Positions 783 to 38,592 of a DNA stretch of 54,950 nucleotides are shown here, one piece after another. The translations under genes were made by a program, and so were the position numbers. The notes beneath the pieces are model-generated. The model did no database searches, was not told where the DNA came from, and worked only from the letters and a program-made list of their open reading frames with translations. The DNA comes from Nemertoderma westbladi (Eukaryota; Animalia; Xenacoelomorpha). Where the stretch lies: contig JAUCBJ010008175.1 in NCBI GenBank assembly GCA_032718475.1, positions 1 through 54,950 of the forward strand. Direction: 5' to 3'. Within the stretch, counting starts at the first letter, position 1. Each line of letters starts with the position of its first letter.

Positions 783-1101
783 ACTAAGTAACGTAAAGTA
801 ACCCTTAAAATTCAGAAATTCAGTTATTCTAAATAATTGACATTACCGGTATTTAAGGTAGGCTTATTATTATATTTATATAAATTTAGGCTGACATTAT
901 ATAACGGTATTCTGTGATTAAACCTAGTTTGTAATAATACTTATATATCCTATAAGTTTATACCGGTATTCTAATATTATATATTGCGTTACATTGAGTA
1001 GCGGTATCGGTAATTGATCACTAGGCTAACAGTTGATACGGAATTACTAGACTTGCTTTAACTGCCGTTATAGTAGTAGGCATTCAACTGTACAATTAAA
1101 C

Positions 1102-4100
1102 ATGACTGACAAAAAGCAAACTCTGTCAGATAGTCTCCTAGACGCAACAGTCTGCGACTCTGACAGGAGCGCCGAGCGTTTAAGACCAAAGTCCAAGTCC
1201 CCTCCTACTGTCAGAAAGGTCATCCCTACAGTAGTAGTATCAGACCCTAGGCTAGTACAGCACCGTAGGTCTATCATAGGCACTCGGGCTCAAGTCAAGC
1301 GGGACCAAGAGGCAGCTGTCAAACAACGGCAACCCTCTAACCGAGAATTAATTTCTCGGAGGCCTGATAGCTCCAGTAGTTCGGATACTGTGGAGTTGTC
1401 ACCCGAGCGTGGAGCAACGATAGCGGATGCAGTTTATGCGGATCCACTTCTCATTCTTCCCGAAGCCGTACTCGCTAGAGTGTTGATTGCTGTGGAGGAA
1501 CATCAAATTGATTGGGCGAGAAGTAAGCGATCTACTAAGGACAGTTATGCGGGATACACGAAGGAAGAATTGAAGTCTATTGTCGAGACGCAATGGAACT
1601 TCTCCGGACCCGGACTCCCATTTAACTTATCGGAAGCTGCCTGGGAGGACTTATACAGGATGGGAGTAGTGAAAGACGCCAAAGATCCAGCTGTGTGGAA
1701 GAGGTCAGCAGCAGGATATGTACAGAGATTCTTCAGCTCATTGGAGCGATTGGAGGAACAACTGTTTCAACAACCCCAAGGACCTCAAGAGCAGGAACAG
1801 CTACTATATCAAGTTCGTGAACGAATCTTAAGAATTAGACTAATTCTTTCGGCCTTTGAGGAAGCCTCAAAGAGAATTCAAGACACGTCGTTGCAAGTTG
1901 CCGTAAAGACTTGGTTCCAACGGGTGAGTCTTAAAGTCCAAGGAACAACCCAGTGGAAAATTCAGTTGGATGAACGCTCAACCCATGGAGAATCAACAGA
2001 CGCTACCTTTTCTCAGGTGGAAAGCGAAGCGACATCGGAGAAACCTCAGAAGAAGGACGCCATTGACATCTATCTGTCAGACTATCAGCGATTCATCGGC
2101 GACAAAGAGTTAAGGAGACGGTTAGCTGGACTTCATCCTAATAGTGAGGGAGCTAAATTTGTGCTAGACACATTAGATGCGGAAAGGCTAGCAGCAAATG
2201 GAGCTATATTTGATGAAAGCAGCCGCATCGCTAGGGAACAAGAAGAACAATTAAAGAAAAAACGTATAGAAGACAGAAAGATAGCAGCAGCGGCAGTAGC
2301 AGCGGCAGAAGCGGAAAAGAAAGTGGCCGAAGTGGAAATAAAAGCAGCAGAGGCAGAGGCAGAAGTGCAAAGCAAGAAGGCAGCGGCAAAGGCAGGAGCG
2401 GAAAGAAAAACGGCCGAAGCAGAAAGAAAACGATCAGTGGCAGAAGCAGAAAAGAAAGCCTAAGAAGAGACCACCCAACTAGAGTTGGAAAATCTGCAAG
2501 AGAGGCAAGACTACATAGACAGACAGAGAACAGCTAGTAATATGCAACTGCTAAGTTGGTCAACTCCTAAGCGACAGGGATTTACATCGTCTGATGAAGA
2601 CGATACGACAGATCCTGAAGGCAGAGGAAATAGATCTCGTTCAAACCGACGTAGAAGAACAACCCACCACCCGAAACTGCCTAATTTGCCCCAGCTGTGA
2701 GAAGGCAACTAGTTAGTGAAAACTTAGGTAGTCCAGAACTCACAGACCAAATTATTAAAATAGAAAGACTTCCTACTATAGTAGATGAGCCTGAAATAAA
2801 TAGGCCTGTTGTTCTCGAAGCCACCCCTTCTGTAGTAGAGACCCCTGTACTTCCAGAACCTAACTCTAAATTCCCTTTGCACAGTACCAAACTACTTGTG
2901 CCCGGTAGAACAGCCCCTGAGACCATCCTGGTCCTGGACGCTGAGAGAGACATCAAGGATTTGTCACCGGTCGTCCCTCGTCTGCCCGCTACTATGTTGG
3001 CGACTCCTGCTTCGGCGGTTGAGTGGGTGGATGAGAGACGACGGGGGATGGATATCCTGCTCGGTAAGATGGAGGAGAATCACCTCCGCTCCTTCCAACA
3101 GGTCCGAGAGTTGGCGGGGACTGTTCAGCAGTTGAAGGGAACAGTAAGAGAGGGTAGGTTAGAGTTGCAAGAAGTGCAGCAGAGTATCGCGTACCTAAAG
3201 AGGTGAGGTCTCTATAGGGGTGCGCAAAACAGGTGGCAGCGGACTAGTGAGGGTCTGGGGGCACATTAAATCTATTCTAAGTGCAAGGGAGATACTGAAG
3301 GCCCTCGTGTCGAGCAAACCATGAATCAACATGGTGCCGTGGTACCGTCTAGTCGGCCTGTTGCCGTACTGCTAGTCCTGTACACAGTAGGGGTGGTGGC
3401 TTAGTGTGATCTGTTGTTTATTTGGTGTTTATGTTTAGTATGTATGTATGAGTTGACCAGACTCTTTACTGTCTCCAATCGGCTGCTAAAACGTGTCTTT
3501 TCCCAGGGTAGCACTATTGGAATGGAGGTGTTGCATCGGAAGGGGCAGGATTCTGATGATTCTGTTGGTACTACTATTGGAATGGAGGTAGCACCTGGAA
3601 TATCCGCTGTAAGGAGGGGGTGGTGTTGTAGTGTGGTCCGAGTAATGATGTTCTGGAATCTGTGGTTTGTGTGTGGATGATCAGTGGCAGTTTGCCTGAG
3701 CTTTCTGTTGCTGTGGGTACGTGGTATACGTGAGTGTGTGTATGGCCACTACGAGTGAGTGTGGGAAACCTTGCCAGTTGGTTCAGTCGCTGCTGGTTAT
3801 TAGTAGGACCACATCTTTACTGCGCCCCAGCATACTTTGTGCACACAAAGTTATTTTGCCCTGACGGCAAAATAAGGTACTCTCGGCTCTTTTATTAGTC
3901 GATACAATTTTGTCCCCTCTGATTTTGTCACCGATTTTGTCTTCCCCGATTATGTCCTCTGTGTGTGCATGGTATGTGTTCGATTTTGTGTTTACCGTTG
4001 TGTACTCGATATTGTGAGCATCTGTTGAGTACATGTGTACAGTGACTAGTAAGTGGTTACTTGTTCCTAGCTTTCGAGCTAGTCAGTATTGTTTGCGGAA

Positions 4101-7100
4101 CCGACTTCCCCTCAATACTGCCGGCGAGGCGGGTGAAAATGTGTCAATATTCCATGTTGGGTTGCGCAAGCCCACTTGGGACAAGACCGTCGGTTTGGCT
4201 CAAGGGCGACCTTGATGCTTGATCGCTATCGACTGGTCCACCCGCCGGTTGACTCTGAGTTGGCTCAATGTACACGTACAGTCAGGCCACAGTAAGTTGG
4301 TTGACATGTAGCAGTCGCCCATGTTCTACATGGCTACATGTTCGACGAGCTGTGCCGGTGTGATCGGGGGATTGAAAATTGAACCCGGGAAGCATTGGGC
4401 TACCCTCCGGCCCGGTCTGATAAAAATGGAGTCAGACTGGCCCCAAGGGTGGTGGGACAGCGTCCGCCTCATGGGTGCGCGTCGAATAATCCGAGAAATT
4501 TATATACCGATAACTCGATATTAAATAATACGATGGCTCAAGAAAGTTTTACACGTCAAATGGCTAGAACCGAGGCCTGTCAAGCGGTAAAGGTGGGAGA
4601 GATTGTCAAGTTCAATGGAGATGAGATGAAATGGTTACCTTTTAATGAATATTACAAAGATAACATACAGACCTCTGTGCTGTCTAACGGAGAGAAACTT
4701 AGATTCCTCATCGAGTGTTTGGACGGACCTCCCAAGTTAATGGCGTTAAAGTTTATTGGACATCCAGATGGATTAAGACAAGTTTGGGATACATTAAACA
4801 TCAGGTATGGTAATAGGACAAACATAGCTAGGTATTTATATGCAAAATTAGTAGCGCCCCGAAAGTTCGCAAGCAGCGGGATTATAGAGTTTTCCGATGA
4901 GATTCAGGAGATCTGTAGACAACTAGATTGGTTAGGCAAGTCTCATGAATATCAGAGTTCCATGGTTATTGGAGCTGTAGCATCTACTTTGCCAAAGGGT
5001 GGAGTTGGTACTCGCTGGGACAAGAAAGTGCTCTATATGATGGACCAGCAACAAAGAGACCCTACCATGGATGATCTTATGTCATTCCTAAATGGAGAGG
5101 TAGGATTACAGCTCCTAAGGCAGTCCCGGGAGAAGACACCGGAAAATAAGGTAATTGAAAAACCCGTTTCTAGGCGAAAAGTCACCCCAGTGTGTTATAC
5201 CGATGATGGCGAAAGCCAAACCTCTCAAGAGGAGAACAGCGGAAAAGACACTGAAAGAGCTTACTATGTCGACAAAGCACACAAAAACGTAAGTAAATAT
5301 AAGTCTCGAGCCAGTGATAGGAGAGAATAGGTAACAAAAACTCCTATGTCCCCTAAGAGAATTCATGGAAGAAAGCCCGAGGAAAGAACGAGTGTGCACA
5401 ACATTACCCAAGGTTAAGGTAAGTAACATCAAACCAAAATGTGTTCTGTGCGACAGGCCCCATCGTTTGAGTGCGTGTGATGACTTCTTAAAGAAGTCTT
5501 TGAAAGATAGACGTGAAGTCATGTGGGATAAGCGGTTGTGTTATAACTGTCTCAGACAAGGACATCAACGGCGAACCTGTTACTCAGACGTGAGGTGTGC
5601 TAAGTGCGGCGTGAAACAACATATCTTGCTACACACCGAATTCGAAAGGAACAGTACGAGTCAGGTGAGTGAGTCTGAACTACACGTCCAATTCAGTGAT
5701 GTGAACAACACTGATCACAGTTCTGAGATGGAAGGATTTTACACAGACTAATTCTCCAATGAAAATGAATCCTGATACATGATAAACACCGCAGTGTATC
5801 GAGCACTTACGTATGAGACTGACACCGAATGTGAGCTCCCCTTAAATATTCCTGACCAAAAACCATCTTGGAACGCGCCAACTTCCAACGTAGGAATTAG
5901 AGAATTTCCCGTAGTGCAGTTGAGAGTCCACGGAGGGGAAAAGAGTTATATAGTGAACGCCCTCCTTGACTCCGGCAGTACCAGAACATTCATCGACAAA
6001 GAACTAGCCGAGGACATCTTTGCTGGACAACCCAAGTTCCGAACTAAGTTGAACCTTTCAGGAATTATGCAGGTTTGGAAATCTACAGTAGCTACAGACT
6101 ATTATGTAGGCGCGTTGTCCACCCCCCAGGATGAGCTAGGAGAACACAGTATAAGGTTAGTAAAAATGGTAGCGATAAAGAACTTCGCCACCAGCCAAGT
6201 GGAACCTTATAACTGGGATGAAGATGAGTTCACCCAGCAGTATGATATACCTAGATTTAACACCGACTATCCAGGGGTACAAATACTCATCGGCCAAAAT
6301 GCGCATAAGGCTCTGGAGACATTAGAGAAACGGCCTGCTCAACCGCAACCACTGCAAACCTATGCGGAAAGAACTAGAGTAGGTTGGTACTTTACTGGAC
6401 CTTCCCGTAGGAAACTCAGGGAAAGGATACCAAAAGAACAAATCCACCAAGTGAGTGAATGGGAAAAAGAAATCAGTGAAGGAGACGATACACCTGAGGG
6501 AACACCATACTCCTCAGATCATGACAATATACATCCAATATTTGACGAGGAGAATACCATCAACCTTCTTACGGAAAATGAAACTTGGCGAAACCAAGTG
6601 AACTTGTGTCACCTCGTCCATCCAGTGGGACAAGACAACTACAATGGTGAGTTGAATGAAGTACTAGATCGTTACAACTCGAGGACTCGTGATGAACACG
6701 CCGTACGATTCTTTACTCAAGAAGCTGTAGAGCCTAATTCCTACGATAAGGCCTTATCGGTAGAAGAGGAAAGAGCCAAACAGATACTTGAAATGACGAA
6801 ACGTTTTCTTAAAGACCAAGGTAGGTATGAGATTGGTCTGCCCTTCCGGCGGAGAGAACCAACTTTTATAAATAACCGACCCTTGGTGGAGAAGAGAATC
6901 GCGCAACTACATCGACGCCTTATGGCAAACGCTTCAGCAAAAGAGATATACTTCTTGTACTTCCTGGACGATCTTCCAGAAACCAAGACACTTGGTTTGA
7001 AATTGGACACAGAGAGAGATATCCTGTTTTTCCAACTCGAACAACGAGATAATCCAGTTCGGACCAAACGGATTTGTCTAAGTATCCTGAGTACTTATTT

Positions 7101-9676
7101 CGATCCATTGGGATTTATTAGCCCCGTTATATTGGTTGCTCGGAGCTTAGTACAACAAATGTGGCTGGAAAACCACTTGTGGGACGATCCACTTAAAGGA
7201 GAACAACTGAAGAAGTGGATGAAATGGGAAGATTCTCTACCATCCATCGAGAACTTTATTATTTCCCATTCATACTTTGGTCACATTCTCCCCACATATT
7301 CCTATCAACTCCATGTGTTTGGAGATGCCAGCGATATGGGAATAGGTATAGTAGCCTACATGAGAGTTGAAACTCCAGACGGAATTAAAGTCGCCTTGGT
7401 TACCTCTAAGGCCTTGATAAACAACAAACTGAAAGTTCCTCGAGCGGAGTTAAAGGCGGCTCTATACGCTACAGCCATCGGCCGGAATGTAACCGAACAG
7501 ATAGACTATCCATTGGAGAAAACCGTCTATTGGACCGATGCTTTGCTCGTGTTGGAGTATATCACCAATGAAGTTTGTCAGTTCAGCATCTTCGTTACCA
7601 ACCGAGTAGCCATTATACTTAGTCGCACGAAGACAGATCAATGGAGACATTGCCCTGGGACGATTAATCCAGCCGACATCGCCTCCAGAGGAGCAACTCC
7701 CCAGGAACTGATAGATGCTCCAGACTGGTTAGGTTGACCCGACTTCCTAAGCAAGGAAGAGGATGAATAGCCTCCTCATCTTACCACGGCTGAGATTAGA
7801 CAAGCCAAGGGAGCGGAGAAAGTCAAACCTAAAACCTGGGCGAGTAAATTGAAGTTATTTAAACCAGTAGTAGATCTGTCTGTACTACACATTTCTGGAG
7901 ATGACGTTTTGGATCTAAAACTCCCCGCCACAAATCAGTCCGTTGTGGAGATTAGAGAGAGAGACTGGAAATCTGGAACACCAGACGTCTCACACGGACT
8001 CTCACCCCTCCTGCAGAGAGCAATACATCACTACAGCTCCTGGAATCGGCTCTGTAAGGCCGTTGTATATTTGAAACGATGTTTTCATTATCATTACTCC
8101 AGAAAGAAAACCGGTGGTGATACCGCTCCACTGACATCGGCGCAGGTCCATGTTGTTAAAGATCTTCCCAAGTATAAGACATCGGAACGGTTTCTGACGA
8201 GAAGATCAGTTACCCGGAGCATGAAGAAACTAATAAGCAGATACTGAGACTCCTGCAATGCTATGAGGATTCCGATAAGTATTTCCTGTTGTTGAGAAAT
8301 CCACAGATGCGCTTAAGGGATCGTTTCTCTAGTATAATGATAGACGGGTTAATACGTGTTGGAGGTAGATTAACTAATGCTCCATTATCCTTTGACACTA
8401 AGTTTCCCATACTCATTAGAAATCTTGAAATACAAATCAAGATGATTGTAGATGTTCACAGTAGGCTTTATCATGCTGGTAGAGAACGAGTTCTTAGCGA
8501 AATTCAAACTCGCTATTATTTTCATAAACCCCGTAGAGCTCTGAACCAAGTTCTTAGGAACTGCATACACTGTAGGAAAGCATTCAGTAGGCCTTTAACA
8601 CAGCGAGAGGCAGAATTACCTAGGGAACGCGTAAGCTTCTACGAACCACCCTTTTCTAATACCGGTGTGGATTTATTTGGCCCTATTGAAGTATATCGTG
8701 TTAGGACTATAGTCAAGAGATGGTGTGTCATCTTTGTCTGCATGACTTGTAGAGCTATCCATCTCGATATGATGAACGATCTATCTACCAACAGCTTCAT
8801 ATTGAGCTTACACCGACAGATCGCTTGCTTTGGAACTAGTAACACAATGAGATCAGATAAGGGAACGAACTTCGTTGGTGCCAACAACGAAATAAAGGCT
8901 TACGTCAAAGATTGGAACCAAAGACAGGTGGACGATCAGTTAAGGGTAACAGCGTCTAGCTGGACCTTCAACGCCGCCGACGCCCCTTGGTGGGGAGGAA
9001 GTTGGGAGAGATCAATTAGAAGCGTGAAGACCGCATTTCACTTTATAGTGCCGTGCCGCGCGCGCGCGTATCTTACCGACAAACTTTTGCGGACGTTAAT
9101 GGAGGAAATCGCCGCCTATCTCAACAAGAGAACGCTTATGCCAGTCTCAGTGAGCCCCAATTCCCTGGAAGCGCTAACACCCGCGCACTTCCTACTGAAG
9201 AAACCTGTAGCCATGCTCCCACGATCTGAAATCACGGACGGAGAGACGAGTATTGCCGGCAAACTTGGCAACTCATGCAATTGTTATCTCGTCGTTTCGC
9301 TGACCATTTCGAAAAACATTATCTGCCTATGCTACAACTTCGAACCAAGTGGTTTGCGCAGCAAGAAAACGTCAGCGCCGGAGACATGGTACTTATAGTG
9401 GACTTAGATCTTCCACGTAAGCGGTGGCAGACAGGTCGTATCATTGAGACCCATCTGTCGGATGATGGTTTAGTGCGATCGGTAGAACTCGTCGTCATGC
9501 GGCGTAACTTTAAGAAACCGGGAATAGTCTTTGAGACACAACAGCTCAACCGCCCAGTTGGTCGTTTATGTTTACTGGAAAGAGACCAAGAACTCTCCGG
9601 AAACTATGGAAGGCAAGATACTCTTCCCACGACCACTTCCCTAATTCCTCAAACATCTAGGGGCTCCCCAACGTAA
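1102..9676 (+). pseudogene. gag-pol: gag-pol pseudogene of copy A
   Basis: Fragments at 1102-2463, 2485-3191, ~4486-5330, 5365-5751 (three knuckles CVLC..H..C, CYNC..H..C, CAKC...H), 5779-7737 (protease ALLDSGS, RNase H LHVFGDAS, NPADIASRG), 8289-9398 (integrase HHCC, GVDLFGP, SDKGTNF, WGGSWER) and 9275-9676. Many stops and frameshifts, no YxDD RT core. Confidence 0.92.
3192..4485. other. 1,294-bp foreign insert replacing 208 bp of gag
   Basis: Homology to copy B stops after tatcgcg (B 20778) and resumes at ataatccgag (B 20987). Mirrored at 49553-50846. Confidence 0.85.
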
Positions 9677-10559
9677 CCACGTCTGGAGTGGGTGTGTGAC
9701 CATATTATTTTATATATTTTTATTTTTTTTATACATCTATGTATGTATTATTATGTACTTTTATTATAATCGTTTTCTTTAATTTTATTTAGTAGAATGT
9801 TATTTTAGCGATTATTTAGTAGATTAGTGCAATATATTAATCTTATTACTTAAGATGACTTAGTGATGTCCCTTTTTAACAGTAGCGTAAAACGCAAAAT
9901 AAATCTGTTAAACCCTTTGACCATCTGTAATTCTAGTCGATTAAGATATCGCGGCACCCACCGATATAGTTGAAAGACAATAATTTTAGAATCAGTGGTT
10001 AACGTCCCCAGACAAGTTCTGGAATAAATCGGTGCCCATCTTAAATATTACATATTTAATATTTATACAAATCTATAAACCAAAATCCGTTAAAATTTAG
10101 ATCTTTTAAAAATTCTAGTTGATTAAGATATCGTAGCTGATAAAATTCATAAAATCATGTATAAAGGGGAATATTGACTATTAAAGAATTACTATTAAAT
10201 AGCATCCCAGATCTGTATGCATGAGAATTACCCTAATTCTACCGCTAGCTTTCCATAATGTCACCATAGCAACAAACAAGCTAGAATTAGAAGCGAGTTA
10301 AAAGAACAATAGAAAGCTTGCCCCATTGAATAGCATAAGGAATAAATAGCACACTGCTAGTATCCAAGGATACATAATAATAACGTGGCGTTCTGGAAGG
10401 CACTTGACTAACGAACAAATGGCCCGAATGTGTACAATTTGGGGCAGTTGTGTGGAATTTGTGCGTTTATAGGTGAATGTTACTACTAAAGTGTGTTTAC
10501 AGTAGCGAGTCGCAGTTGTGAAAGTAGCCCTACCTCTGCAGTAAGAACCTGAAGTATAT

Positions 10560-10720
10560 CTTAGCCCTTGGGACGGACAGTGGAGTGACTCGCACCAGTT
10601 ATCATTGTTGTTGTATAGCTACACGTTGGCAAAAAACACAGCGACGACGGTACATCGGCGCTGAGGATCTTTCGCTGTCCGGGGGCCGCGAAGGGGTAGG
10701 CAGCGACGCCCGCTAGCCTA
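10560..10720 (+). promoter_or_regulatory. Conserved structured RNA element upstream of ORF2 (copy A)
   Basis: GC-rich block in an AT-rich spacer. Stems cggacagt/gctgtccg, ttgttgttgt/acagcgacga and taggc-agcg/cgct-a-gccta are preserved in copy B. Confidence 0.55.
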
Positions 10721-10761
10721 ATTATAAATAATATCAATATTAATAAACTCATATAGCAGCT

Positions 10762-13700
10762 ATGACTGAGTTGATAGAAGATGATCTTGGTATTAGGGAG
10801 CGATATGGTACGTATATGGACTTCTTAACTACTGGCCATCCTATCGATTTACACGATACGGACGATGTAGACACTGAAAGGGAAATGGTTTTATTTAAAT
10901 ATCATACCCAGCGGAGTCAGAACGATAAACCGAGAATCGAGCACGAGAATTCTATTCGGAACCGACTCAAAAGAGAAGACGTTGAAGAGCCGGATAAACG
11001 CAGCAACTTCAACAATTATATAGAATTCTTGAGAGAAACCTATCTCAATATTGCCAGTCAACAGAATCTAGAAACTGGATATCCTCAAGGTATACATCAT
11101 GACCCCATGGTAGAACTCAAACGGCTCTATTTCACTATGATGTATCTTACTGCCGATCGACCGCTACCTGTTGTCCCGGATAGCTTTGAACAGATGGAGG
11201 AATATTGTAAAACTGGAGAACGATCACCCGCGTTTCCTCTACAGGACGTGCGTCTTTGGTATTATTGTAATGAATGCCCTAGACCCAACCAACAAACAGA
11301 AAGACATAAACATCCGCGGAGACGTTGCACTAAACAGAGTTTTACTCGCTATACTTACGGGAGTTTCGAGCGAAATCTGTGCGATGTATCACCTATGATC
11401 GCTTGCCTCAAACAATCACTAAATAAACCCATGATCAGAGTTCCGGAATACTCGGTCAGGCCTCCTCATTCCCCAGTGAGACCTCAAACTCTTGATCCTA
11501 ACAGTATCACGGATCCTCCCAAACTATACTCACTGTTCAAAGATTTAGTTTTACCCGAACAATTAATCGGTGGCACCCCGGTAGTGGGTTCGTTGGATAT
11601 TCGCCCATCCTACCTAGCCGGATTGGGACGCGGGCATCTAATATCGCCATTTAATCCTTACAATCGTCCAGGTTTAACCCCGATACAACCCGCCACCGAA
11701 GTCGAGGAGAGTGTTATAAGAAACGCATTAGATGCTATTTGGCAGAAGATCGGAAAGGGAACGTACAATTGTTTAGAGAAACGTAAATTACAGCAACAAG
11801 TCCAATCAGAGAAGAAGTTGGCCTTGCCACAGTTCGATCGAGAAATCCAAAACCTCGAGGAAGACATCGAACTTGGACGAACTTATTCTCTACAAGAGTT
11901 TTTAGATGAACGCCTACAACGACAAGTGGAGGAAAACCAACTCGAGGAGAAACACACGGAATTGGATGAGAGAGAAGAAGCAGCTTTAGCCTAACCCGAA
12001 GCTCAATTCCTTATGACGGGTCTCTACTCTAAAACCATACTTAATCCCTCAATGGTTCCCCATTTCGGAGACAAACTCTTTGCGACGGTACAACCCCAAC
12101 CTGTTGATATCAACATAAGATCACAAAATCTTATCGCTGACGCTCCTATGTTACAGCATCCGCCAATCGAGGCCGCTCGTGTCGACGGTATACTCGTTGA
12201 ACCTCCGGACAATCGAGCGGATCTTGTCCATCGTATGGTACACGAGGTCATCATACGCGCTAGACCTTTACCGAACTCGTTTTATGGGATTAAAGACCAT
12301 CCTTATTACGTTAATCTAACTCAATAATATATGGTAAAACCTGAAGACCCGACGCATAATCTAAGGTTTCTACCGCTAATAAATCCTCTCGACCTTGTCA
12401 AACTCGAACAATTGCAGAAAAATCTAGATCAGTTGGTGAAAGTAAACTCATTCAGAAAACCATACAACGTTTCTAGAATAGAGAAAGATACAACACCTCC
12501 ATATAATCTCAATGGATTTATTAAGACTCGATTAGTCCATTGGAATCTCGACGTGTTATTCGAAGAAGAGAGAAATCAAAGATATGGAGATGTGGAGACG
12601 TATACTACACAGTATCTGAAGTATAGGGATCTCCCTAACGCTAGCAAATGCGCCACCTTGTGGCATCCGGTGGGGATGACCCTAGAGAACGCCACCAAAG
12701 AGTGGAACGAAACTCTTAACGTCATTGAAATGTATGGAGTTGTCACTTACGATAATGAAGGTAGCGTTCCAGTCGGAGAATTGGGAACTACGCGCATGAT
12801 ACATATACAAGGATTAGCTGGTTCTACCCACGTGTTAACTCGAGCGTGTTCCGACGTGATTGATTATTCTTTTGAGACTCTCACCGAAATACAAAAGAAT
12901 CTCCGACATGGACAATTCGAACTCGCGCAGCGTTATGTCACTGACACCGAGCGCAAACCGGCCATGGGTATCGATGGATAGATGTTATCCCAGCCCATGC
13001 TCGAGATGTTGTTTAACGAAAGAATCTTTAAAATCGGCTCAGCTGTTTATGGAGATCTCCAAAACAAATTTCGGAACATGGAGAATATCCCATATCCTTT
13101 CGTGGATACTCAGCTGATTGCTCCTTGGGCAGAAGGCCGAGGTTTCTTCCGCACCATGTATGCCAATACGTCCAGCTGCATCACTAAAGTACAACGAACC
13201 TCCATCGGACATCTTGCCTTTCAGGAATATGGATGGAATTTCAAAGTCGGAAATCCTATCAACTATCAGCAAGTATATGGAGATCATTATTCTCGATTAT
13301 ACTTTGACGGACCATTGACTGCACCTGGCGTCGTGTATAGCTTCATGAGTGTTCCACTTCGTCCCTCCTTAGCTATATACACGATCTTTGAAAACACCGC
13401 ACTTGCCGGTTGGCTAGCCGATGTGTGCAGTCATACTATACGCGCCCATCCCTTAATACTTGGAACCAAACTCGCCAAGCTAGATGAACACAATAAATTC
13501 ATCCGCTTCGAATGTTTCAGGCGTTTTCTAACCCCGTTCCGTAACGTTGATAGCCAGTTCAAGGACCGCGCTTTGACCAAGCTCAACCTAAGAGACTCAG
13601 CTGCTGAGAAGTTAGACAGCGCTGGATTTGCAATTTTCAAAGATGTTTGTATACAGAACTTACACTCTTCTGTTATACAAAGACCTCGGATCCCCACGGG

Positions 13701-14723
13701 TTATTCTATCATGGAAGTTCAGACAGTGGGTTCGCTTGAGGAGACAGCCACACCTACCTCAGCTATGCAATTGGAAGACGAACCAATATGCTTAGAATCC
13801 GAGGAGATTCAGCCTACCGCGCCCCGGAGCAGCAACGACGACTACGTCTTAGAATGGTATCTCAGTGTCTCACCACATACGACTATCGGCATGCCAACTA
13901 TGTTTCTCGACAACTTTGTCAGTTATGCGCATCGAGAGACCATATTACACCCATGGACTCAAACGTACCCTGCTCCTATTTCCACGAACAACCAGCGATG
14001 GAGATCTATTGTGCGTATTGCAGACTCAATAACTTGCACATTTTTGCAGTCTGCCCCCAATTTATGACTCAATGCCATCATTGTCAACTTAAAGGACATG
14101 CCAGTTTTGATTGCCCTTTCAATCGCAATCTGGAAAGCGTAGATGAAATGATTACCCTACGTTATATTCGAGCTTGGGAAGCGAACGCTGATTTACATTG
14201 TGATTCACGCCATCGCTATTACCCTGGACGCGCCTACGAAGGAGTTTATGCGTTCCATCCTTATCTATTCGCGTCCGTCGAACAGAAATCATACACACCG
14301 AGTTACGAACTAATGAAGCGTGTCAGCGAGTGTATTTCAACCAAATTTGTACGCAAATTTCTCAGGAGCGTTAATCCTAACAATATTCATTCCTATAACC
14401 TGATTAATTTCATCCGTCAAGATCCGGAATATGGCAATTTGTTTATCAACTCGCACCCAGAGTTACAGGAAGTACATTGACGGCCCTACGAATATCGAGC
14501 CCAAGAACGCGAGTTGGAAAGAACCATTAAACCAAGGAAGTTTCTCACTGCCTATGGTCCGCCCACTGCTCTCGTTCAGATCACTCGTCAAGCACCAGTA
14601 AGAGCTGCTGTCCTGAAACGTGCTCTAAAGGCCATCGACCAACCAGGTACCTCGACCGGCGGATACACCGACCGTAATCCTAAACCTTCTGATGCAATCG
14701 TTGTAAAAGCTTTTGTGGGATAA
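10762..14723 (+). pseudogene. ORF2 of copy A: ~1,300-aa accessory protein with Zn-finger-like N-region, coiled coil, putative DEDDy 3'-5' exonuclease and two CCHC knuckles
   Basis: ORFs 10762, 12013, 12331 and 12982 share one frame and are separated by single stops; the first two are sense codons CAA and TAT in copy B. A frameshift near 13870-13990 joins the frame of 13788..14480 and 14514..14723. Motifs VVTYDNEG, LEMLFNERIFKIGSAVYGD, FVDTQ, SIGHLA, YTIFE, CAYC..H..C and CHHCQLKGHASFDC. Confidence 0.8.
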
Positions 14724-14881
14724 CTGATTCGTTTGCCTTGTTGGCCAGTTCCCCCCCAGTCGCTAAGAATACTCTCAAAGTGATCTACAGCTAAAAATAG
14801 TGCAAGTTACCAGCTTATTGGCTGATTTGCTGTACGCAGGCATCTGGGCTCTGTTTAATCGGCCAACAAGCCTAGGGAGGT

Positions 14882-16469
14882 TGCGTCATAGCCTTGTTTT
14901 TGTATCTCCCAATAGAATTTGAGTTAGCCTTGATTTTGACCTATCACAGGCTACTGAACTGAAAATTTCCTATCTCTACTACTAGGATCGGCATGCTGCG
15001 TTGCAGCTGCATTTTTAAGAATGCTGTGCCGGCTTGTCAACAAAATTGCACCGCCACAACTCCCTATCACCCATGACATTTGCTAGATCATCCGCATCTT
15101 TAAGGCCAGTGTCCTTTAAGATGCGTCTCAAGAAAGTCATGGGCTGTCCACCATGCTTATTCACTCCATGAGGCTGCCAAAGTACAAGATTATGCACTGG
15201 CTGGTCCTCACGGCGAAAGCAATGTCCTGCAAAGCGGAGGCGATTTTGTTCTAGTGTCAAGCTTGGGGGAACCAATGAGACACCTCCAATGTTATATAGT
15301 GTCTGGTTGGAGATGTGTGCATTGTACTTGACACAATGAACCCGGCGTAGCATTCTTGTGAATGTGCCATCCAGAGATTTGGTGTCCTCAGCAGTTAGAG
15401 CCCAGCATGGACTCCCATAGAGGAGTACTGGAACTACTGCTGCTCTAAATAATCGGACCTTAAGTTTCCGATTAATTCTCGGTGACTTCCAAATCCTGGA
15501 AAGCCTATTCAAGGCTGCCCATGCCTTTCCCTTACGTATTCGAAGGTCCTCACCTGACTTCCGGATCCACCATTTCCTATCTCACTGCTCTTTCTCTGTG
15601 TTGAACGGGAGCTTCGTGGAATAAGGGAGTTGGTATCCTCGTATAGAGCAGTAGTCACGAGTTTTTCAAAGCCACGAAAGAACGGCTTTTTAGTGTTTTA
15701 TGTTTTATGCTTTTTAGCTCAACACTAGTAGGTTTAATTACAAGGACATATATCCTTTAACTGGCTGGCTGCAATTACGCATCAAACAACCTGGCTTTAA
15801 ACTCTGTAAATATCAAAACAAACTGGCACGATTGATCTGTGAATACTGCATACTGCTATTTGTTGTCGGTTATTCATTATATTTGTTGATGAATTATTAT
15901 ATTGGAATAACGAGAAATAACCCCGATACCCAATATTCTTGATATACCGAAGGTAAGAGAGAAAGGTTACCAATAACGATTGTGACTTATGTTAAAGTGG
16001 TTTGAAGTGAATCTAATGTTATTTGATAGACCCTACATGAGTCAGTCTGTGTTCCTTTTATATGTGATTAAAATCAGTGAAGATTGGCAGATTAGTGTGC
16101 AGTATTGTGCAGCATTGCGTATGAGCGAGTCTGTTAAAGAAGCAATTCCTAAAGAATGCGCCATATATGTGAATTATAATTAAGCCATATCGTTGTGAGT
16201 AGTTTAAGTCATAACTCTGTTTATATAGATAAAGCGCCACGTCCTAAAGGAACTGTTAATATTCCCGAAGGTGAATAATATTGTCAGAGATTATATAATA
16301 CTGTCAGTCGAATAATACATTAAGCTTACATAGCAATAAAATTAAACCGTCGAACCCAATCTCCCGGGAATATCCAGCGGGTGAATGGTCGCGCACGGAT
16401 TGGTTTCGACTAGTGTAGTGAATCAAATACTTGTCATAGGCTAAAAAGCGATTTAATATCTAGAAGACA
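14882..16469 (+). repeat. Candidate single LTR shared between copies A and B (~980 bp after removing the RTE insert)
   Basis: Purine run agggagg then TG at ~14882, AATAAA at ~16335, ...AGACA at 16469 followed 8 nt later by TGG. No second copy in the window confirms it. Confidence 0.35.
14977..15571 (-). mobile_element. 5'-truncated RTE-type LINE with ~12-bp TSD
   Basis: ORF 15015..15512 has the same protein sequence as the C-terminal part of 54061..54939. TSD atttcctatctc at 14965-14976 and 15572-15583, plus a (TAG)n tail. Confidence 0.92.
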
Positions 16470-16811
16470 TCTTAATTTGGCGGGTTAAACTGCCAAAGGT
16501 CTGAAAGCGCGAACATTAAAGGATATAGCTCCTTTGTTGCAGTAAGCAATAAAGTTGAAAGTACCGGTCAACCGGTAAACCTGAACCGGTACATTCTGTA
16601 GGTCAGTAGGCCTAACTGTTCTAACCGGTACTTCCGTATAAGTACACTAGTATTATTCGATTTGATTGTTGTATACCGGTAGGCTGTTTAAGGGATTAGG
16701 GATTGATCACCCTTATTCCTTTATATGGTTTACTTATTTCTGTCAAGTTTTATTTATTTGCAGGCCAGTATTGAACAGAAGGCGTGTAAGCCTGATCAGA
16801 TTGTACAGACG

Positions 16812-25328: not shown

Positions 25329-27066
25329 ATGACTGAATTAATAGAAGATGATCTTGGTATCAGGGAGAGATATACTCTACCTTTACAAGCGTTTGTCGAT
25401 AGCTTGATACGCGGCGACGCTGATCCAACTATTACGGAGGACGATGGTCGTTATATCGAACCGCCAATGTCCCAGGAGCAACTTACGCGTGAATTGGATT
25501 ATAGAAAGTTCACTGCTCGCTACACGCATCGTAATGGTACGTATATGGACTTCTTGACCACTGGTCATCCTATTGATTTACACGACACCGACAATGTAGA
25601 CACCGAAAGGGAAATGGTTTTGTTTAAATATCATGCCCAGCGGAGTCGAAACGATAAATCGAGAATAGAACACGAGAACTCTATTCGAAACAAACTCGAA
25701 AGAGAAGACGTTGAAGAACCTGATAAACGTAACGGTTTCAACGATTATCTAGAATTCTTACGAGAGACCTATCTCAATGTTGCTAGTCAACAAAACCTCG
25801 AAACTCGATATCCCCAAGGTATACATCCAGATCCTATAATGGAACTCAAACGGCTCTATTTTACGATGATGTATCTTACCGCCGATCGACCGCTACCTGT
25901 CGTTCCAGATAGCTTCGAACAGATGGAGGAATATTGTAAAACTGGAGAGCGATCACCCGCGTTTCCCCTTCAAGACGTGCGTCTTTGGTATTACTGTGAC
26001 GAATGCCCTAGACCTAACCAGCAAATCGAAAGGCATAAACCTCCTCGGAGACGTTGCGCTAAACACAGTTTTACGCGATATACTTATGGGAGTTTCGAGC
26101 GTAACCTTTTCGACGTATCGCCTACGGTCGCGCGCCTTAAGCGATCATTGAATAAACCCATGATCAGAGTTCCGGAATACTCGGTCAGACCTCCCCATTC
26201 ACCAGTGATACCTCAAACTCTAGATCCTAATAGTATTACGGATCCTCCCGAACTGTACTCACTGTTCAAAGATCTAGTGTTACCTGAACAGTTGATTGGT
26301 GGCGCTCCGGTAGTGGGTTCGTTGGATATTCGCCAACCTTACCTCGCTGGACTAGGACGCGGTCATTTAATATCACCGTTTAACCCCTACAACCGTCCTG
26401 GCCTTCCTCCGATCCAACCTGTTACAGAAGTCGAAGAGAGCGTGATATGAAATGCATTGGACGCTATTCGGCAGAAAATCGGGAAAGGAACTTACGATTG
26501 CTTGGAGAAACGTAAATTGCAACAACAAGTCCAAGCGGTGAAAGAACTAGCTTTACCCCAGTTCGATAGAGAAATACAAAATCTAGAGGAGGACATCGAA
26601 CGTGGACGAACCTACTCTTTACAGGAATTCCTGGACGAGCGCTTGCAACAACAAGCGGAGGAAAATCAGCTCGAGGAGAGACATATAGAGCTGACTGAGA
26701 GGGAAGAAGCAGCTTTAGCCCAACCAGAAGCTCAAATTCTCGTGACGGATCTCTATTCCAAAACGATTCTCCACCCCTCGATGGTTCCTCATTTTAAAGA
26801 CAAGCTCTTTGCGACGGTACAGCCTCAACCGGTTAATACTGATCTCAGATCTCACGAGCTCGTTGCTGACGCTCCCATGCTACAACGTCCACCCATCGAG
26901 GCCACTCGTGTAGATGGTTTACTTGTTGAGCCTCCGGACAATAGAGCGGATCTTGTCCGTCGCATGGTGCACGATGTTAACATACGCGCTAGACCTTTGC
27001 CGGACTCATTTTATGGAATTAAGGATCATCCTTATTACGTCAATTTAAAGCAATATTATATGGTGA
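25329..27066 (+). pseudogene. ORF2 of copy B, 5' part (one in-frame TGA at 26448; continues at 40971-41138 after the nested element)
   Basis: Highly similar to copy A ORF2, with an extra 54-aa N-terminal segment. Reading ...KQYYMV|KPEDPTH... is split by the insertion. Confidence 0.88.
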
Positions 27067-28051
27067 TGTTGAAGCAAATCGATTGTTATACTTACAGTAT
27101 ATTGTCAACATTTATATTTTTTGTTCACAGCAGTGTTTAATGCAATTTATATTTAAATTTACCGCTGTGCAATTATTTTTCTTTATGGCTTGTGATTTCT
27201 TGCCGCTCATTGGCTCTTTTAAAGAGTGAATGGGATTTTGAGAGCTAGAGAGGACGTGGTGGAGAGGAAGGGCTGGATAGGCCAGGGCATAAGCATAAAA
27301 CCACGGTACTACAGTACTACATACGGTAACGGTATCCTGTCTGCCTGTCTAATTATTGTGCTGTGTTATGGATATGCGGTAAGAAGACCAGAAGGGCCTT
27401 CAAATCTATGTTTTTTATGAGGATGTACATCAATCTGTAAATTTGTGTAAATTCAACCTACTGAACTAAGGAATTGCATAATTATTCTGATATATTATTA
27501 TACCTACTGACTGGAAGCTGACGCTTACTTTCTTTTCGACATTCAGTCAGACACCTTACAGCCTTATCTGTTCTGTGTTCCCGAAAGTTTAGCTAGGTCC
27601 GCTAATTACTAAACTTAGCGCAGCTCATGGGTGTAATTTCTGCCCCGATTTATGATTTCTGGCTGTAGCGATATTTTCGGTCAGCTCATAGAGTCACTAA
27701 TCTTACAGTATCAGCATACACTTACCGGCAGACCGGTAATTATTCATCTATTTGAGTAAAGGACGGGTCGAACTACTACCAATTACAGGTAACAAACGGA
27801 TCCATAATTAATTGTTTACTGTCTGACTGAAATGGTAAGTTCCTTTATTGTTTGACTTGGTTTGTGAGTAGCAAGTGTCTTCTGCATTCCTATGTGAATG
27901 AACGGTTGTTTTCTTGATGTTTCCCTCCATAACGCCTTTGTTTGTGTGATCAAAATGTAGATAATAAATTGTTGGTCTTCAAATTACCGCTACCGCATAT
28001 CTTCATATCGAGTGACGTCCCAAGGTTGGGTCTTTCTTACTTGCGGTAACA
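27067..28051 (+). repeat. 5' LTR (985 bp)
   Basis: tgttgaagc...gcggtaaca, a near-identical direct repeat of 39981-40965. Confidence 0.97.
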
Positions 28052-28369
28052 ATAAAAAACATTAAATACAAGGCTTACCAGTACAGCAGTACCGGCATCA
28101 TACACATTTACAAGGACTGCACACATCCTTTTGCTGATGTTTTGCAGTTTGTTTGAACAGGTGAATGAAAATTAATATATAGATCTTGCAGATGCGCACC
28201 GCGCACAGCATTATCTAGGGTTGATTAACTTGTCGGTGGGTAGTGTAATTGTAATTTAACAAGTTTTGTTATTGCTGTAGCCTGTAGGTCAGTACTGCAG
28301 TAGGTATTGTTCAGGTATCGTACTTCCTGTACTTTAAATAGGCCTATATACCACCACCATATACCGGTA

Positions 28370-29005
28370 TTCTGACGCCTATTCATTTAGGTATTCCTGT
28401 ACTACAGTAGTATAGTGTATCTTGTACTGTTTAATTTGATGCCTAATTATATAGGTCTGCATACTACAGTACTAGGCCTATATCTGTATATGCTATATGC
28501 TGTGCTGTATGGACTTGACTTGACGCCTATTTTCTTATGATCTTAGGTATACATATATTTGATGCCAAATTATATAATTATAATTAGGTCTACATACATA
28601 TTCTGACGCCTATCAATGTAGGTATACCCGTCTGCCCGTACTTCAGTATTATAGTACCCTTTAAATTGATGCCTATTTATTTAGGTCTGCATACTATATG
28701 CTGCATGTACCTTACTTTGATGCCTAATTTCTTCTGATCTTAGGTATACATATATTTGATGCCAAATTATATAATTATAATTGGGTCTATACATATTCTG
28801 ACGCCTATTAATGTAGGTATACCCGTACTTCAGTATTATAGTACCCTTTAAATTGATGCCTATTTATTTAGGTCTGCATACTATATGCTGCATGTACCTT
28901 ACTTTGATTCCTAATTTCTTCCGACATTAGGTATACATATATTCGATGCCAAATTATTTAAATGTAATTAGGTCTGCATCCATATTTGATGCCTATTAAT
29001 TTAGT
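28370..29005 (+). repeat. Degenerate tandem repeats (~185-200-bp units built from tgaYgcctat...taggt subunits) in the 5' leader
   Basis: ttaggtatacatatatttgatgccaaattat recurs at ~28543, ~28740 and ~28927. Confidence 0.8.
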
Positions 29006-29682
29006 TATACTATACAGTAGATAGGTCTATTGTGTCCATAAACTTTCTATCAGTACACGCTTTATTTGAATCTGCACACTTACAAACGTATAGTTTGTTT
29101 GAAATACTGTAGGTTTACACCCGGCGGGAGTGTATAGCTGATATAGTTTAGCTATATAGTTTTAGTTATTACTAGTTTAGATAGCTATATAGTTTATTTA
29201 CTAGTTCAACCCCATGAAATATTAAATTGTATTGTATCATTGTATTTTAATGTAATGTCCTGAGATGCTGTGAAAGATGATCTATTTGTATGATTTGCGG
29301 CTAAATATGGATATATATAGGTTGTGATTTGTAGGTAATAAAAGGCTGAGTTATAGGCCTACTGTACATAAGTATAGAATTTCAGTAAGTAAAAATTGAG
29401 GGTTCGCCTTCGGTTATTTAATATTATAAATATATGTCAGTACATATTAAGCTGTATAATTATTTAATGCAGATAGTTATTACGTTCCTTTGGTTTGATC
29501 TCTGTTGTACTTTCTATAGATTCACTGTATATTATATACCGGTACCACTGTATAATATTATATATATTATATATATATTCTCACTAAAACTCTAATTCTA
29601 ATATACCTGTACTCTATACATATCATTGTATTATAATTATACATAGTATTGTATTATCATATAATGCTTAAATAACTTAACC

Positions 29683-32600
29683 ATGTCAATACCAGGTAAT
29701 ACTGAAACCCCGAGTCCAGATAATGTGGCAACTGCTTCCTCTGGGGATATGCATAGTGTAATTAACCTTGATCAAACTGTAATGCATATGTCGGGTAATT
29801 CTCAGGCATCTGATGATGAGTACCAAATGTGTTCGGAAATATCGTCACATCCCTCTAATCTTTCTGATAAAGAAATTTATGGGTTTAGTAAGCGAGAAGC
29901 TATAAAAATATATGGGTATGATCCCACAGATAATAGTCCAGAAACGTTGATGAAGCTGGGGATTCCAACTGGCACTGATGAACGCCAATTAAAACAGTCT
30001 TTGTCTGCATTTCGTGGACATGTTTCTAGAACAGTCAATGCTATTCATAAAAGCTGCAGCGGTGTAGTTCCTTCTAGTTATGAAAATATTAATCTTTGGC
30101 TGAATGAATCTAATGAAATTCGCATTCGATGGTTGGTTACATGTAATGCATTTAATAATGTAATTATTTCTCGTGGTTTGTCAGCATTGACTCCTACTGT
30201 TGACATATCTCGGACTACAGGCCTACAAATAATAAGCCAGTTGAATGAGAGGTTAAATGTTTTGTTACGTCCTCAGAGGATGTCAGACGAAGGAAGAACA
30301 TTCCCACCCAAGGGTCAAGCAATGTCAAATAAACAATCACAATCAAGGGAACTATCTCAGAGTTCGAAGGCTACATCGCGGAGGTCAATATCCAGTGAAA
30401 CTCGGCGAATCTTACAGCAGATAGGAGAACAGGAACGGAAAGCTGATGAGCAATTACTTCATGACCAAATTGAAGCCTCTAAACAATTCCAAGAATTGCA
30501 GGATGGCGTTGAAGATGAACTGAAAAGGGCTGAAACCATAAAAAGAGAAGAAGAATTAAAACAGCAAATACTGGAAGCAGCAAAAAGGGCAGAAATGGAA
30601 AAAAGAATACAGGAAGAATTGGAAAAGAAACAAAAATTAGAGACACAAAAATTACGAATTCTACGAGACCAACGTGAAGCAGCAGAGAATTTAAAAAAAC
30701 AGTTACATCTTCAAAGGCAACATGTTATTGCCAAAGAGATGGAGCGTCAATATAGAACTGATTCTGCCTCTAGCCGTTATAGTAAACCTTCAAATAATGG
30801 AAGTAATGTTAATGAAAGATGTAATAGTGTTTCTGTTCCTGCTCCTGCGCCAAATAGTGAATTGGATAGGGCTTATAATGAAACACAGCTAAAATCTATG
30901 TCCTCAGCTTCTACCTCCCAAGGTCGATTAGTAACTACTACTGAAATATTAGGAGGAATGTCAAACTTTTCTAGGGTTCAGGTCTCTACCCCATCGCCGC
31001 AAACTACGATTAATATTGATGCTCAACACCCTTCTGTTGCTGGAGTTATAGCTGGTGAAGTTCAGATGCTACATGATGATAATTATGCAGTACCCTCCTG
31101 TCATATCCAGGTAAGTAAGGGGTTACCATCACTATCTAAACATTCAGTGACTGCAAGTGTTAGTGTGCCAACTATTCCACTAATGGCTTCATCATCTGCT
31201 GTGAAAGATAAAATGGAGTCTCTTGTTGTCACTCTTACAACAAACCATCATCCCAGTAATCCGATATCACAATTTACACACCAGGAAATTAAAGAAATTC
31301 CCAGGCAACTCCCAGTTGATACATCCAGAAAACCAAATTTCTTTGATCACCTTCGTCCTGTACCATCAACCTTACGTCCATCATATCCTAACAAGGAATT
31401 TCCACCTCATTCTGTAAGTTTTAATCCTTATACATCAGTTGCAGGCCAAAATTATAGTAATACAATCCCTATACAACGACCACATTCATGTTATATGCCG
31501 TATCAAGAAGCATATTTCCCCGGTCTGAATTCATCAAACCGATCCCCAAGATATCCTTCACATTCACCTGCCTTCCATTCTACTGGAATTTATCCCGAAG
31601 AATCCACAAATTATGACCCCTTTGTAGGTGGTAGTGAGAGACCAATTGGGGATTATGGTGGTGAAACTCATTACAATTATTCAGAATTTGATAATATTCA
31701 ATTAAAAACTAATGATGCGAAAAGAGGATTATATTCTGTAATTAATGATACTAAGAATGCAAAACAACAGTTAAGTTCTATCAGAGAAGAATTAGAAGCT
31801 GAACGAATGGAACTGGCTCGTGTGAAGGATTCTATAAATATTCAAAGAATGGAACAGGTTCAAGAGAGACATGAGTCATCTCATCCTCCTCCTCAGCCAC
31901 TGTTTGCAAAGAAAAGTATTCTAAAACCAACTGAAAAATTTGAAATAACATCACATGAGAAGGACAAATTAGAACATCCTGATAATATTGTAGCAGATTG
32001 TGATTCTGAACTTCCAAATGAGTTTATATCGAATTTCAGTTCCAGCCATCTTAATAGAACCGACCCAAATCTTAGTTTGGCAAGGGTTTTTTCTCGGATG
32101 GATGCCAGACAATCATCAGTTTTAGATCCTCATTTGAAGTTTGATGGAGATCCACTTAAGTATCTTGCCTTTGAAAATCATTGCAAAACATCTTTCACTG
32201 ATGTACCTCTGACTGATAGTGAACGATTGAATAATCTGATAAAAATGTTAGAAGGGACTCCAAAGGAATTAGCTTTGTGCCAAATTGGGATACCAAATGG
32301 ATTTAAGATCGCATGGGAACAATTGAAAGAGCGATATGGAAATAAGGCCACGATAGCTACATCTATGATTGAGAATCTTCTTACCGATGGTAAACAGGTT
32401 TCTTATGGATATTCATTGGTCAAATATGCAGACAATATAGATCGTGTTTCAAACCAACTAAAGTTATTAGATCAAGAAAGCCAACTTGACCAAAGAATAA
32501 TTATTAACTGTTTAGTTGCTAAATTCCCTGAAAAGGTAAAGCTAGATTGGTTGAAATACGAGATGAACTTAAAATCAAAATCTAATAAAGGTAAAGAAAT

Positions 32601-37794: not shown

Positions 37795-38592
37795 CAATAC
37801 CTACGATAGGTACCGTTATTTAAGATAAACAAACTCTCTTTTGATTGTATATGTTTAATATCCGTGATTAGTGCATCATATACGTACAAAATTTTGGAAG
37901 CGGGAATTTGTATGTAAATGAGAGCAGTATTTTTAAAAAATTTTGATATATAACAATGACCGTCATCTCACTCTAAGAGCTTGGAAGCGGTATGTAAAAT
38001 GATTGGTTCACAGTTAAATATAGTACATCGAATCGTTTCAAACGATCTAGCCCTATGTGTATTTATCGATGTGATAATCGTGTTTGTATCTAACATATTG
38101 TGTAGTCCAGCCCCGTTTCTGCGCTGCGCGATATTGCATGATACTATGTAAATGAATGTGTGACAAAGTATGAGAATGTTTGTTAAGGTTTAATTTCAGC
38201 CGATTAAAGACAAAGACTTAATATAAACATTATAGTTAAGTATACACATTGATTAGTGACTACCGGTACGCTATCATACGTGGTTGCGTTGAATGGCAAA
38301 ATTGTGTTACTGATACAATAAATTATGGTGCTGCAATCCCGTTTAAACCCTGTCCTTTAATTGATACTATAAATCATTTAAACAAAATAAATAAAACTAA
38401 ATTTTATTGAGGCTTGTGGCACTTTAATTAAAATTAACTTTAAATATTTATAAAAAAATAAAAATAAACGACCAGATTTCTGCGATCCCGTTGGGAGTTA
38501 CATCTTTAGTTTAGTGCCTTGCTGACAGAGCTGAGCTTTCGGGTTCCTGACTGATGGCTTTGGTGTTCTGTTGTCGAAGACGAAAAGTCTAT

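Follow-up and report, generated by a model that had tools for sequence, protein, structure and literature searches.

A constrained accessory gene in a BEL/Pao retrotransposon family of Nemertoderma westbladi with a predicted RNase D-like exonuclease domain and zinc knuckles

The stretch analysed here comprises 54,950 nucleotides of Nemertoderma westbladi (assembly GCA_032718475.1, contig JAUCBJ010008175.1, positions 1 to 54,950 of the forward strand; hereafter the window), and its content is a nest of BEL/Pao long terminal repeat (LTR) retrotransposons. Copies A, B, and C carry all or part of a long second open reading frame (ORF), here called ORF2, while an intact relative, element D, lies inside the ORF2 of copy B (Table 1). 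ORF2 is placed behind pol in two subfamilies, is under purifying selection, shows no transmembrane helix, and contains an RNase D-like ExoII block and two CCHC knuckles.

Table 1. Coordinates of ORF2, its predicted parts, and the surrounding elements in the window
Feature	Position	Strand	Details
ORF2 (copy A)	10762..14723	+	~1,320 codons; ATG 10762, final stop 14721-14723
ORF2 N-terminal region	10762..12477	+	No known family
Candidate ExoI strand	12739..12810	+	D 12751, E 12757 (YDNEG), then second strand MIHIQ
Inferred insertion	12811..12960	+	~45-50 amino acids between strands 2 and 3; low predicted local distance difference test (pLDDT) score; second DxE (VTDTE)
ExoII block	12991..13128	+	D 13054 and DTQ; statistically supported RNase D match
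Candidate ExoIII	13354..13392	+	PLxxxxxxYxxxE; Y 13378, E 13390 for the usual D
Two CCHC knuckles	14010-14054 (CX2CX5HX4C), 14073-14114 (CX2CX4HX4C)	+	C-terminal end of ORF2
Long interspersed nuclear element (LINE) fragment	14976..15572	-	Inserted behind ORF2; presumably RTE-like; 11-bp target duplication 14965-14975 / 15573-15583
Inferred LTR	15599..16515	+	TGTTGAA...AACA, 917 bp; common to A (3') and B (5')
Putative primer-binding site	16516..16527	+	12 nt complementary to 15749-15760 inside the inferred LTR
Copy A	~790 onward	+	Broken gag-pol to ~9680, 1.08-kb spacer, ORF2
Copy A gag-pol	1099..9680	+	Split over several frames; Peptidase_A17 E 5e-34, Integrase_H2C2 E 1e-7
Spacer, pol to ORF2	9681..10761	+	Non-coding; retained in copies B and C; polypurine tract (PPT)-like GGAGTGGG at 9685
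Copy B gag-protease frame	18673-23676	+	Pol largely missing
Copy B ORF2, N-terminal part	25329..27066, resumes 40966-41138	+	Split by element D, then truncated
Element D	27067..40965	+	Intact related BEL/Pao inside copy B ORF2, 13.9 kb
Copy C	54037 to 41155	-	Inverted A/B hybrid
Copy C ORF2, N-terminal part only	41155..43032	-

The extent of ORF2 in copy A agrees with a first-pass annotation of the locus, and the upper figure of 1,370 amino acids given there is explained by ~56 extra N-terminal codons that copies B and C (and aligned contigs) possess near 10806. In copy A the gene is disrupted, with stops at 11992, 12325, 12979, and 14478 and a frame change within 13740-14065. The same annotation placed the giant nuclease ORF in all three copies, which does not hold: the gene ends at the A-equivalent position 12505 in copy B and at 12477 in copy C, and both ends precede the nuclease part. 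Motifs of the nuclease and knuckles are thus found a single time in the window, in copy A. The ORF2 of copy C is 99.7% identical to that of copy B, and it is therefore no independent copy.

Between copies A and C, the ratio of nonsynonymous to synonymous substitution (dN/dS) in ORF2 is 0.07 (bootstrap 95% 0.05-0.09; 553 of 556 gap-free codons), a comparison that spans the N-terminal part only, upstream of the nuclease. A ratio near 1, which had been named beforehand as evidence against a functional gene, is thus not seen over this part. The differences between the two copies fall 56/29/191 on the three codon positions, and the same stretch read in two shifted frames yields dN/dS of 1.44 and 2.54. 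For comparison, the gag pieces give 0.17 and 0.12 and the protease 0.21 (dS of 0.62-0.82, vs 0.89 in ORF2). Purifying selection on the N-terminal part of ORF2 is stronger than on gag, and ORF2 is a real gene.

Variation in the nuclease part was assessed with contigs of four of the seven sequencing runs listed, from two organisms, aligned on 12640-13480 at a level of at least 80% (3,232, 1,143, 38, and 11 contigs); contig depth was not taken as copy number. Among the 40 variable places listed of 175, 29 are third codon positions (P = 5e-7), none touches a codon for one of the four acids or for the Tyr of the putative active site, and none is an indel. The stop at 12979 is private to copy A with respect to these contigs. 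Across 7500-18800, contigs from all four runs cover 30 of 30 bins; no aligned contig spans this whole stretch or leads from pol to ORF2. Deletion forms are also present, i.e. contigs in at least two runs join across 10967-13773, 11954-14657, and 7823-9536, and two of these forms remove the nuclease region.

ORF2 occupies the position of an envelope (env) gene, and the first-pass annotation saw in it no obvious signal peptide or transmembrane helix. The second half of that statement is borne out, as no helix is predicted in the three ORF2 pieces scanned (Kyte-Doolittle maximum 1.17-1.21 in 19-residue windows); as to the first half, the N-terminus is acidic and no signal-peptide predictor was run. 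A Pfam scan gave no match to env families. Positions 11770-11990 encode a charged stretch (51% E/Q/K/R) that may, from its composition, be coiled-coil-like, and in the ESM Atlas the N-terminal frame of copy C matches one unnamed cluster (0.76).

DEDD enzymes rely on four acids and two metals. The residue positions given in the first-pass annotation hold in copy A, where D 12751, E 12757, D 13054, Y 13378, and E 13390 all lie in frame, and the MIHIQ, FVDTQ, and SIGHLAFQEYG segments it listed are present. Among 18,950 NCBIfam models, 2 match at E up to 10, and both are RNase D models (E 0.0023 and 0.0092) that align on the ExoII block. Our own RNase D profile, built from 62 domains (61 of 120 listed proteins with the domain covered and <80% identity, plus E. 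coli RNase D), scores 15.6 bits (P = 5.7e-7) and sets D 13054 on the ExoII D and DTQ on DTQ. With 1,218 six-frame tiles of the window, the two tiles that contain the ExoII block rank at the top, followed by a tile at 4.0 bits, and the best of 2,000 shuffles reaches 8.2 bits. Our own aligner gives 18.8 for ExoII, a score attained by 0 of 100 shuffles. These scores point to a resemblance between the ExoII block and RNase D that exceeds chance.

A second reference set consisted of 60 PF01612 domains hand-picked from 90 listed matches in 41 genomes, all of them bacterial stand-ins with group names inferred from ORF size and motifs. Profiles from 22 RNase D-type domains score 16.0 bits, compared with 2.5 bits for 12 small WRN-exo-like and -3.7 bits for 20 NrnC-like domains, while a PolA-type profile (6 sequences) gives no match to the ORF2 nuclease. 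The bacterial references thus appear to point to RNase D rather than WRN, as stand-ins only and with no eukaryotic WRN, EXD, Mut-7, or Egl profile among them, and they lend no support to the WRN/EXD/Mut-7/Egalitarian label first attached to the gene. No HRDC domain is found after the nuclease, either with a profile built on the C-terminal pieces of RNase D proteins (23 of 27 pieces; <0 bits, no positive control) or with Pfam across ORF2.

For the candidate motifs on either side of ExoII, alignment and pattern searches are suggestive. In a MAFFT alignment with 39 of the 60 references, the columns that receive D 12751, E 12757, and D 13054 are invariant. A pattern for ExoI and the following strand, matched by 17 of 22 RNase D references and by 14 of 20 NrnC-like ones, has a single site in 1,100 amino acids, at 12739 (12 of 20,000 shuffles have one in the band). 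The ExoIII pattern, matched by 22 of 22 RNase D references, has one site at 13354 (91 of 20,000 shuffles) and a second far upstream at 11236. The two patterns flank ExoII upstream and downstream, and 0 of 20,000 shuffles contain both jointly. As such, of the DEDDy motif order originally proposed, ExoII stands on NCBIfam and our own profiles, while ExoI and ExoIII, for which profile support is lacking, are suggestive only.

Alternative placements of these motifs were tried. VTDTE (~12940-12954) is the best candidate for ExoI on the short motif (10.5 bits, a value that 15 of 100 shuffles reach), and it was rejected because two strands would not fit between it and ExoII. NYQQVY, the MAFFT choice for ExoIII, was set aside as well; it has no acid behind it, and its P-to-Y spacing is worse.

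Two CCHC knuckles lie toward the C-terminus of ORF2, as previously noted, and in another frame than the nuclease. They match Pfam zf-CCHC_3 at E 6e-4, under the cut-off, and their first match in the ESM Atlas (0.83) carries zf-CCHC on 61% of its members, which we treat as a lead only. A partial third knuckle (CX2CX4H, 13917-13943) lies upstream of the two full ones. It is in the same frame as these, which suggests that the frame change is upstream of 13917.

The boundaries of the ORF2-bearing element bear on its membership in BEL/Pao. No LTR pair for copy A or B is found in the window. The 917-bp inferred LTR is common to both copies, and ORF2 would therefore lie between pol and the LTR. The end of this LTR at 16515 is well supported, with its AACA being the best of 120 CA sites in the A-B spacer by the pairing of the next 12 nt with 15749-15760 (0 of 5,000 simulated LTRs), while the start at 15599 is a guess from likeness to the start of the element D LTR. 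The two 985-bp TG..CA LTRs of element D are 99.9% identical, and the element has a target duplication (GGTGA) and a single 2,709-amino acid frame; it is recently active, and because ORF2 is absent from it, it provides a natural control. Behind its 5' LTR there is no tRNA-type TGG site; instead, the 11 nt that follow the LTR (28052-28062) pair perfectly with 27408-27418 inside it. Pairing of this kind occurs at 1 of 2,780 control positions and in 12 of 5,000 simulated LTRs. The letters of the self-complementary primer site differ between the two BEL families (A/B vs D). Both families carry a Tf1-like self-priming signature and no tRNA-type primer site. The ORF2-bearing element would measure ~17 kb.

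Taken together, our best explanation, to which we assign a probability of roughly 0.5, is that ORF2 is an accessory BEL/Pao gene that encodes a captured, diverged RNase D-type 3'-5' exoribonuclease with RNA-binding knuckles, with RNA 3'-end trimming as its predicted activity. The presence of a DEDDy-fold domain is very probable, and an active site within it is somewhat more likely than not. Overall, the DEDDy reading is supported, not proven.

A number of results weigh against this explanation. Both NCBIfam matches are far below the whole-protein curated cut-offs, Pfam gives no nuclease match for ORF2, a sequence search of the PDB returns no meaningful match, and hhalign gives a probability of 48%. 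Sub-profiles of ExoI and ExoIII do not rise above shuffles, either with HMMER or with our own aligner, and the corresponding patterns are post hoc, i.e. written with the sequence known and with E allowed as the last acid. MAFFT sets ExoIII in another register, with a Y that has no acid behind it. ExoIII itself reads YTIFE, not YAAxD, and departs from the canonical YxxxD. The motif spacings are 101 and 112 amino acids (vs 57-79 and 69-70 in 20 references), and therefore two insertions must be assumed. As for structure, the single-sequence fold has a pLDDT of 29.5 and provides no independent fold. With a supplied RNase D alignment the pLDDT rises to 61.0 and the model matches DEDD-type folds, with E. 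coli RNase D first, yet an alignment-driven model followed by a fold search is circular and not proof; the only unforced detail of the model is a strand predicted on MIHIQ (pLDDT <50). The frame difference between knuckles and nuclease means that their fusion is assumed, with 40 of 175 variable places listed it is not established that the five residues are conserved across copies, and the dN/dS figure covers only the region before the nuclease. Lastly, no purine tract precedes 15599, and the inferred A/B LTR and the D LTR align no better than chance.

The main rival is that the domain retains a DEDDy fold with little or no catalytic activity and forms, with the knuckles, a scaffold that binds the RNA of the element and serves to package, transport, or shield it, as described for EXD1 and Maelstrom. 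We find this unlikely, even if no other rival comes as close. The E for D in ExoIII, without the small residues of YAAxD, agrees with it, as do the replaced His before ExoII and the two large insertions. Dead nuclease domains usually lose their catalytic acids and Tyr. In ORF2, however, the four acids and the Tyr are all retained, with identity to the references at 11-19%. DEDD derivatives that bind RNA and are inactive have been noted, and the ORF3 proteins of rotifer retroelements, which also have a D-to-E change, are read as possibly active (PMC5408684). It is rather improbable that the likeness to RNase D is confined to the ExoII stretch, with an unrelated fold around it, chance ExoI and ExoIII motifs, and ORF2 as a conserved protein of unknown kind. 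Profile support does end beyond 46 residues, there is no homologue in 1.84 billion representatives, and the matches are far below curated cut-offs; on the other side, these 46 residues match in register (P ~5e-7), include the catalytic D and DTQ, and are flanked by the expected patterns in the right order.

An active nuclease could also work inside reverse transcription, where it would trim the self-made RNA primer or the cDNA 3' end, or proofread a long genome. The tRNA-free, self-complementary primer site is compatible with such a role, DEDDy enzymes can act on single-stranded DNA and structured RNA (PMC5408684), and the inferred ~17 kb exceeds the usual 4.2-10 kb of BEL/Pao elements (PMC3118150). 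Element D, however, has the same priming signature, near-identical LTRs, and an intact frame with no ORF2, and the PolA proofreading profile does not match, so that we give this role a slim chance. That ORF2 lies outside the BEL element altogether, as a neighbouring host gene or part of another element, is the least credible of the alternatives and very improbable. It draws on the missing LTR pair and purine tract, on a PPT-like motif directly behind pol, and on the lack of a contig that bridges pol and ORF2. Yet the order of pol, spacer, and ORF2 is identical in subfamilies A and B, the dS of ORF2 is like that of gag, the post-pol spacer is unlike the region upstream of B, element D too has PPT-like copies behind pol and far from its LTR, and thousands of diverged contigs align on ORF2.

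For an exoribonuclease encoded by ORF2, a mechanism can be proposed. D 12751, E 12757, D 13054, Y 13378, and E 13390 would form one two-metal site; the knuckles would hold single-stranded RNA and feed it to the nuclease as in TbRND, the RNase D of Trypanosoma brucei; the nuclease would shorten the RNA 3' end for the benefit of the element; and the long N-terminal part may oligomerise or dock the enzyme on the ribonucleoprotein. The most likely substrates would be host small silencing RNAs or their guided target RNAs (counter-silencing), ahead of the RNA ends of the element itself, because D, its relative, shares the priming signature and replicates without ORF2. Since D is recently active without ORF2, this gene is unlikely to be core replication machinery, and a host-facing role fits better. 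Both cDNA/RNA processing and counter-silencing, the functions suggested in the first-pass annotation, thus stay proposals.

The rotifer elements Juno and Vesta are Ty3/gypsy-like. Rodriguez, Kenefick, and Arkhipova (2017) described an RNase D-like DEDDy ORF3 (motif DEED) of untested activity in rotifer Juno, Vesta, and Athena (PMC5408684), confirming that such accessory ORFs exist in rotifer retroelements, and the same is repeated for Terminons in a review (PMC6431247). ORF3 is comparable to ORF2 in being an extra RNase D-like DEDDy frame that follows pol at the env position, carries one D-to-E change, and has no transmembrane helix (PMC5408684). Its motif is DEED, against D-E-D-E in ORF2, and the paper states that these ORFs are devoid of coiled-coil domains and found for them no departure from neutrality within the genome and no sign of selection or benefit (PMC5408684). 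By contrast, ORF2 has 1,320 amino acids, a charged helical stretch, CCHC knuckles, and a dN/dS of 0.07 between subfamilies, and the rotifer hosts are Juno/Vesta and Penelope-like elements, not BEL/Pao.

Among cellular enzymes, TbRND (PDB 7C42-7C4C) trims small guide RNAs at their 3' ends and, similarly to ORF2, combines an RNase D-type exonuclease with C-terminal CCHC fingers instead of HRDC (PMC7797062). It differs in being a cellular enzyme with four fingers and a canonical DEDD, while ORF2 has two knuckles (perhaps a third, partial one) ~200 amino acids from the nuclease and a 660-amino acid N-terminal region. Compared with RNase D and Rrp6 (TIGR01388, PF01612), ORF2 shares ExoII in register and the ExoIII spacing PLxxxxxxYxxx[D/E], and differs in the HRDC that was not found, scores far under cut-off, two insertions, and the E for D. 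Viral exonucleases can suppress host sensing, e.g. the arenavirus ExoN (PMC7968707).

With described BEL/Pao elements (Belpaoviridae) the family shares the order of DUF1759 gag, protease, Peptidase_A17 RNase H, and integrase and, in relative D, the 5-bp target duplication and TG..CA LTRs. These hallmarks are distributed over the copies, with Peptidase_A17 and integrase in A, DUF1759 in B, and all of them, including DUF1759 gag and the order protease, reverse transcriptase, RNase H, and integrase, in D. The family departs from described BEL/Pao by its ~17 kb, by inference, its non-env ORF2, and its lack of a tRNA primer site. A survey of BEL/Pao reports few env genes, and the word 'exonuclease' is absent from its main text (PMC3118150). 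Among Ty3/gypsy elements self-priming is described in Tf1/sushi and in Tcn1, and copia TAR is predicted to use it as well (PMC6317226, PMC4600332); the likeness to Tf1/sushi consists of a primer site complementary to 11-12 nt in the element's own LTR, known here from complementarity of the letters.

Searches for homologues of ORF2 found none among 1.84 billion protein cluster representatives at E 0.001, none among proteins of near or greater length, and none in metagenome, viral, and prokaryote contigs, plasmids, or phages. A pol-based alignment search of viral and metagenome contigs was negative, as was scanning viral contigs for RNase D, and PHROGs gave no nuclease and weak matches to unknown families only. 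In the literature we found no DEDDy ORF in BEL/Pao (Repbase, GyDB, subscription journals, and supplements lying outside the scope), in line with what the first-pass annotation supposed, and no BEL/Pao self-priming by title or listing. An extra gene of DEDDy kind is already published for rotifer elements; the BEL/Pao host, the size, the knuckles, the strong constraint, and the lack of homologues are new within the scope of our searches.

The remaining parts of the window concern the elements around ORF2. The copy A gag-pol is 48-51% identical to that of element D, and a motif scan finds the core motifs of reverse transcriptase only in element D and not in the protease-to-RNase H frame of copy A. 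The 5' end of copy A is replaced by what we take to be a LINE 3' fragment. LINE fragments lie inside the elements at 1-780, 14976-15572, and 54025-54950, with the second and third being 98.8% identical. Copy C joins an A-type 5' half (99.5% identity to A over 10 kb) to a B-type 3' half (99.7% identity to B over 2.9 kb), an arrangement that may stem from recombination after inverted duplication or from an assembly effect. The element D insertion is absent from copy C, which begins at a fold-back junction that has a spacer of 44 nt (41110-41155, 43930-44200). The 2.2-kb 3' region of element D contains a 30-bp repeat present 19 times (38593-39169) and open in several frames, and the long 5' leaders harbor tandem repeats of 288 bp (B, 16812-17370) and 187 bp (D, 28520-29010). 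The letters before the inferred LTR start (15570-15598) are pyrimidine-rich. PPT-like motifs are located just behind pol and far from the 3' LTR, at 37896, 37983, and 39971 in D and probably at 9685 in A and 23685 in B; these repeats are possibly internal plus-strand primers or relics of growth of the 3' region. No tRNA or Rfam families are found in the window.

The question of why retrotransposons acquire DEDDy nucleases dates back to the 2017 work on rotifers, and ORF2 extends this accessory arrangement to a second LTR superfamily with a gene that is strongly constrained. Because no homologue is found among 1.84 billion representatives, such genes are missed by standard annotation. Element D, a close relative active without ORF2, adjoins the ORF2-bearing copies, which makes a comparison with and without the gene possible. 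In its most specific form, a conjecture we consider doubtful, a self-priming BEL/Pao would encode an active small-RNA trimming nuclease, i.e. a 1,300-amino acid protein with an RNase D fold and knuckles that destroys or de-tunes host Piwi-interacting or small interfering RNAs, and this retrotransposon silencing suppressor, held under tighter selection than the capsid gene, would aid the spread of the element. If the enzyme acts on small RNAs, ORF2 would represent an element-encoded counter-defence.

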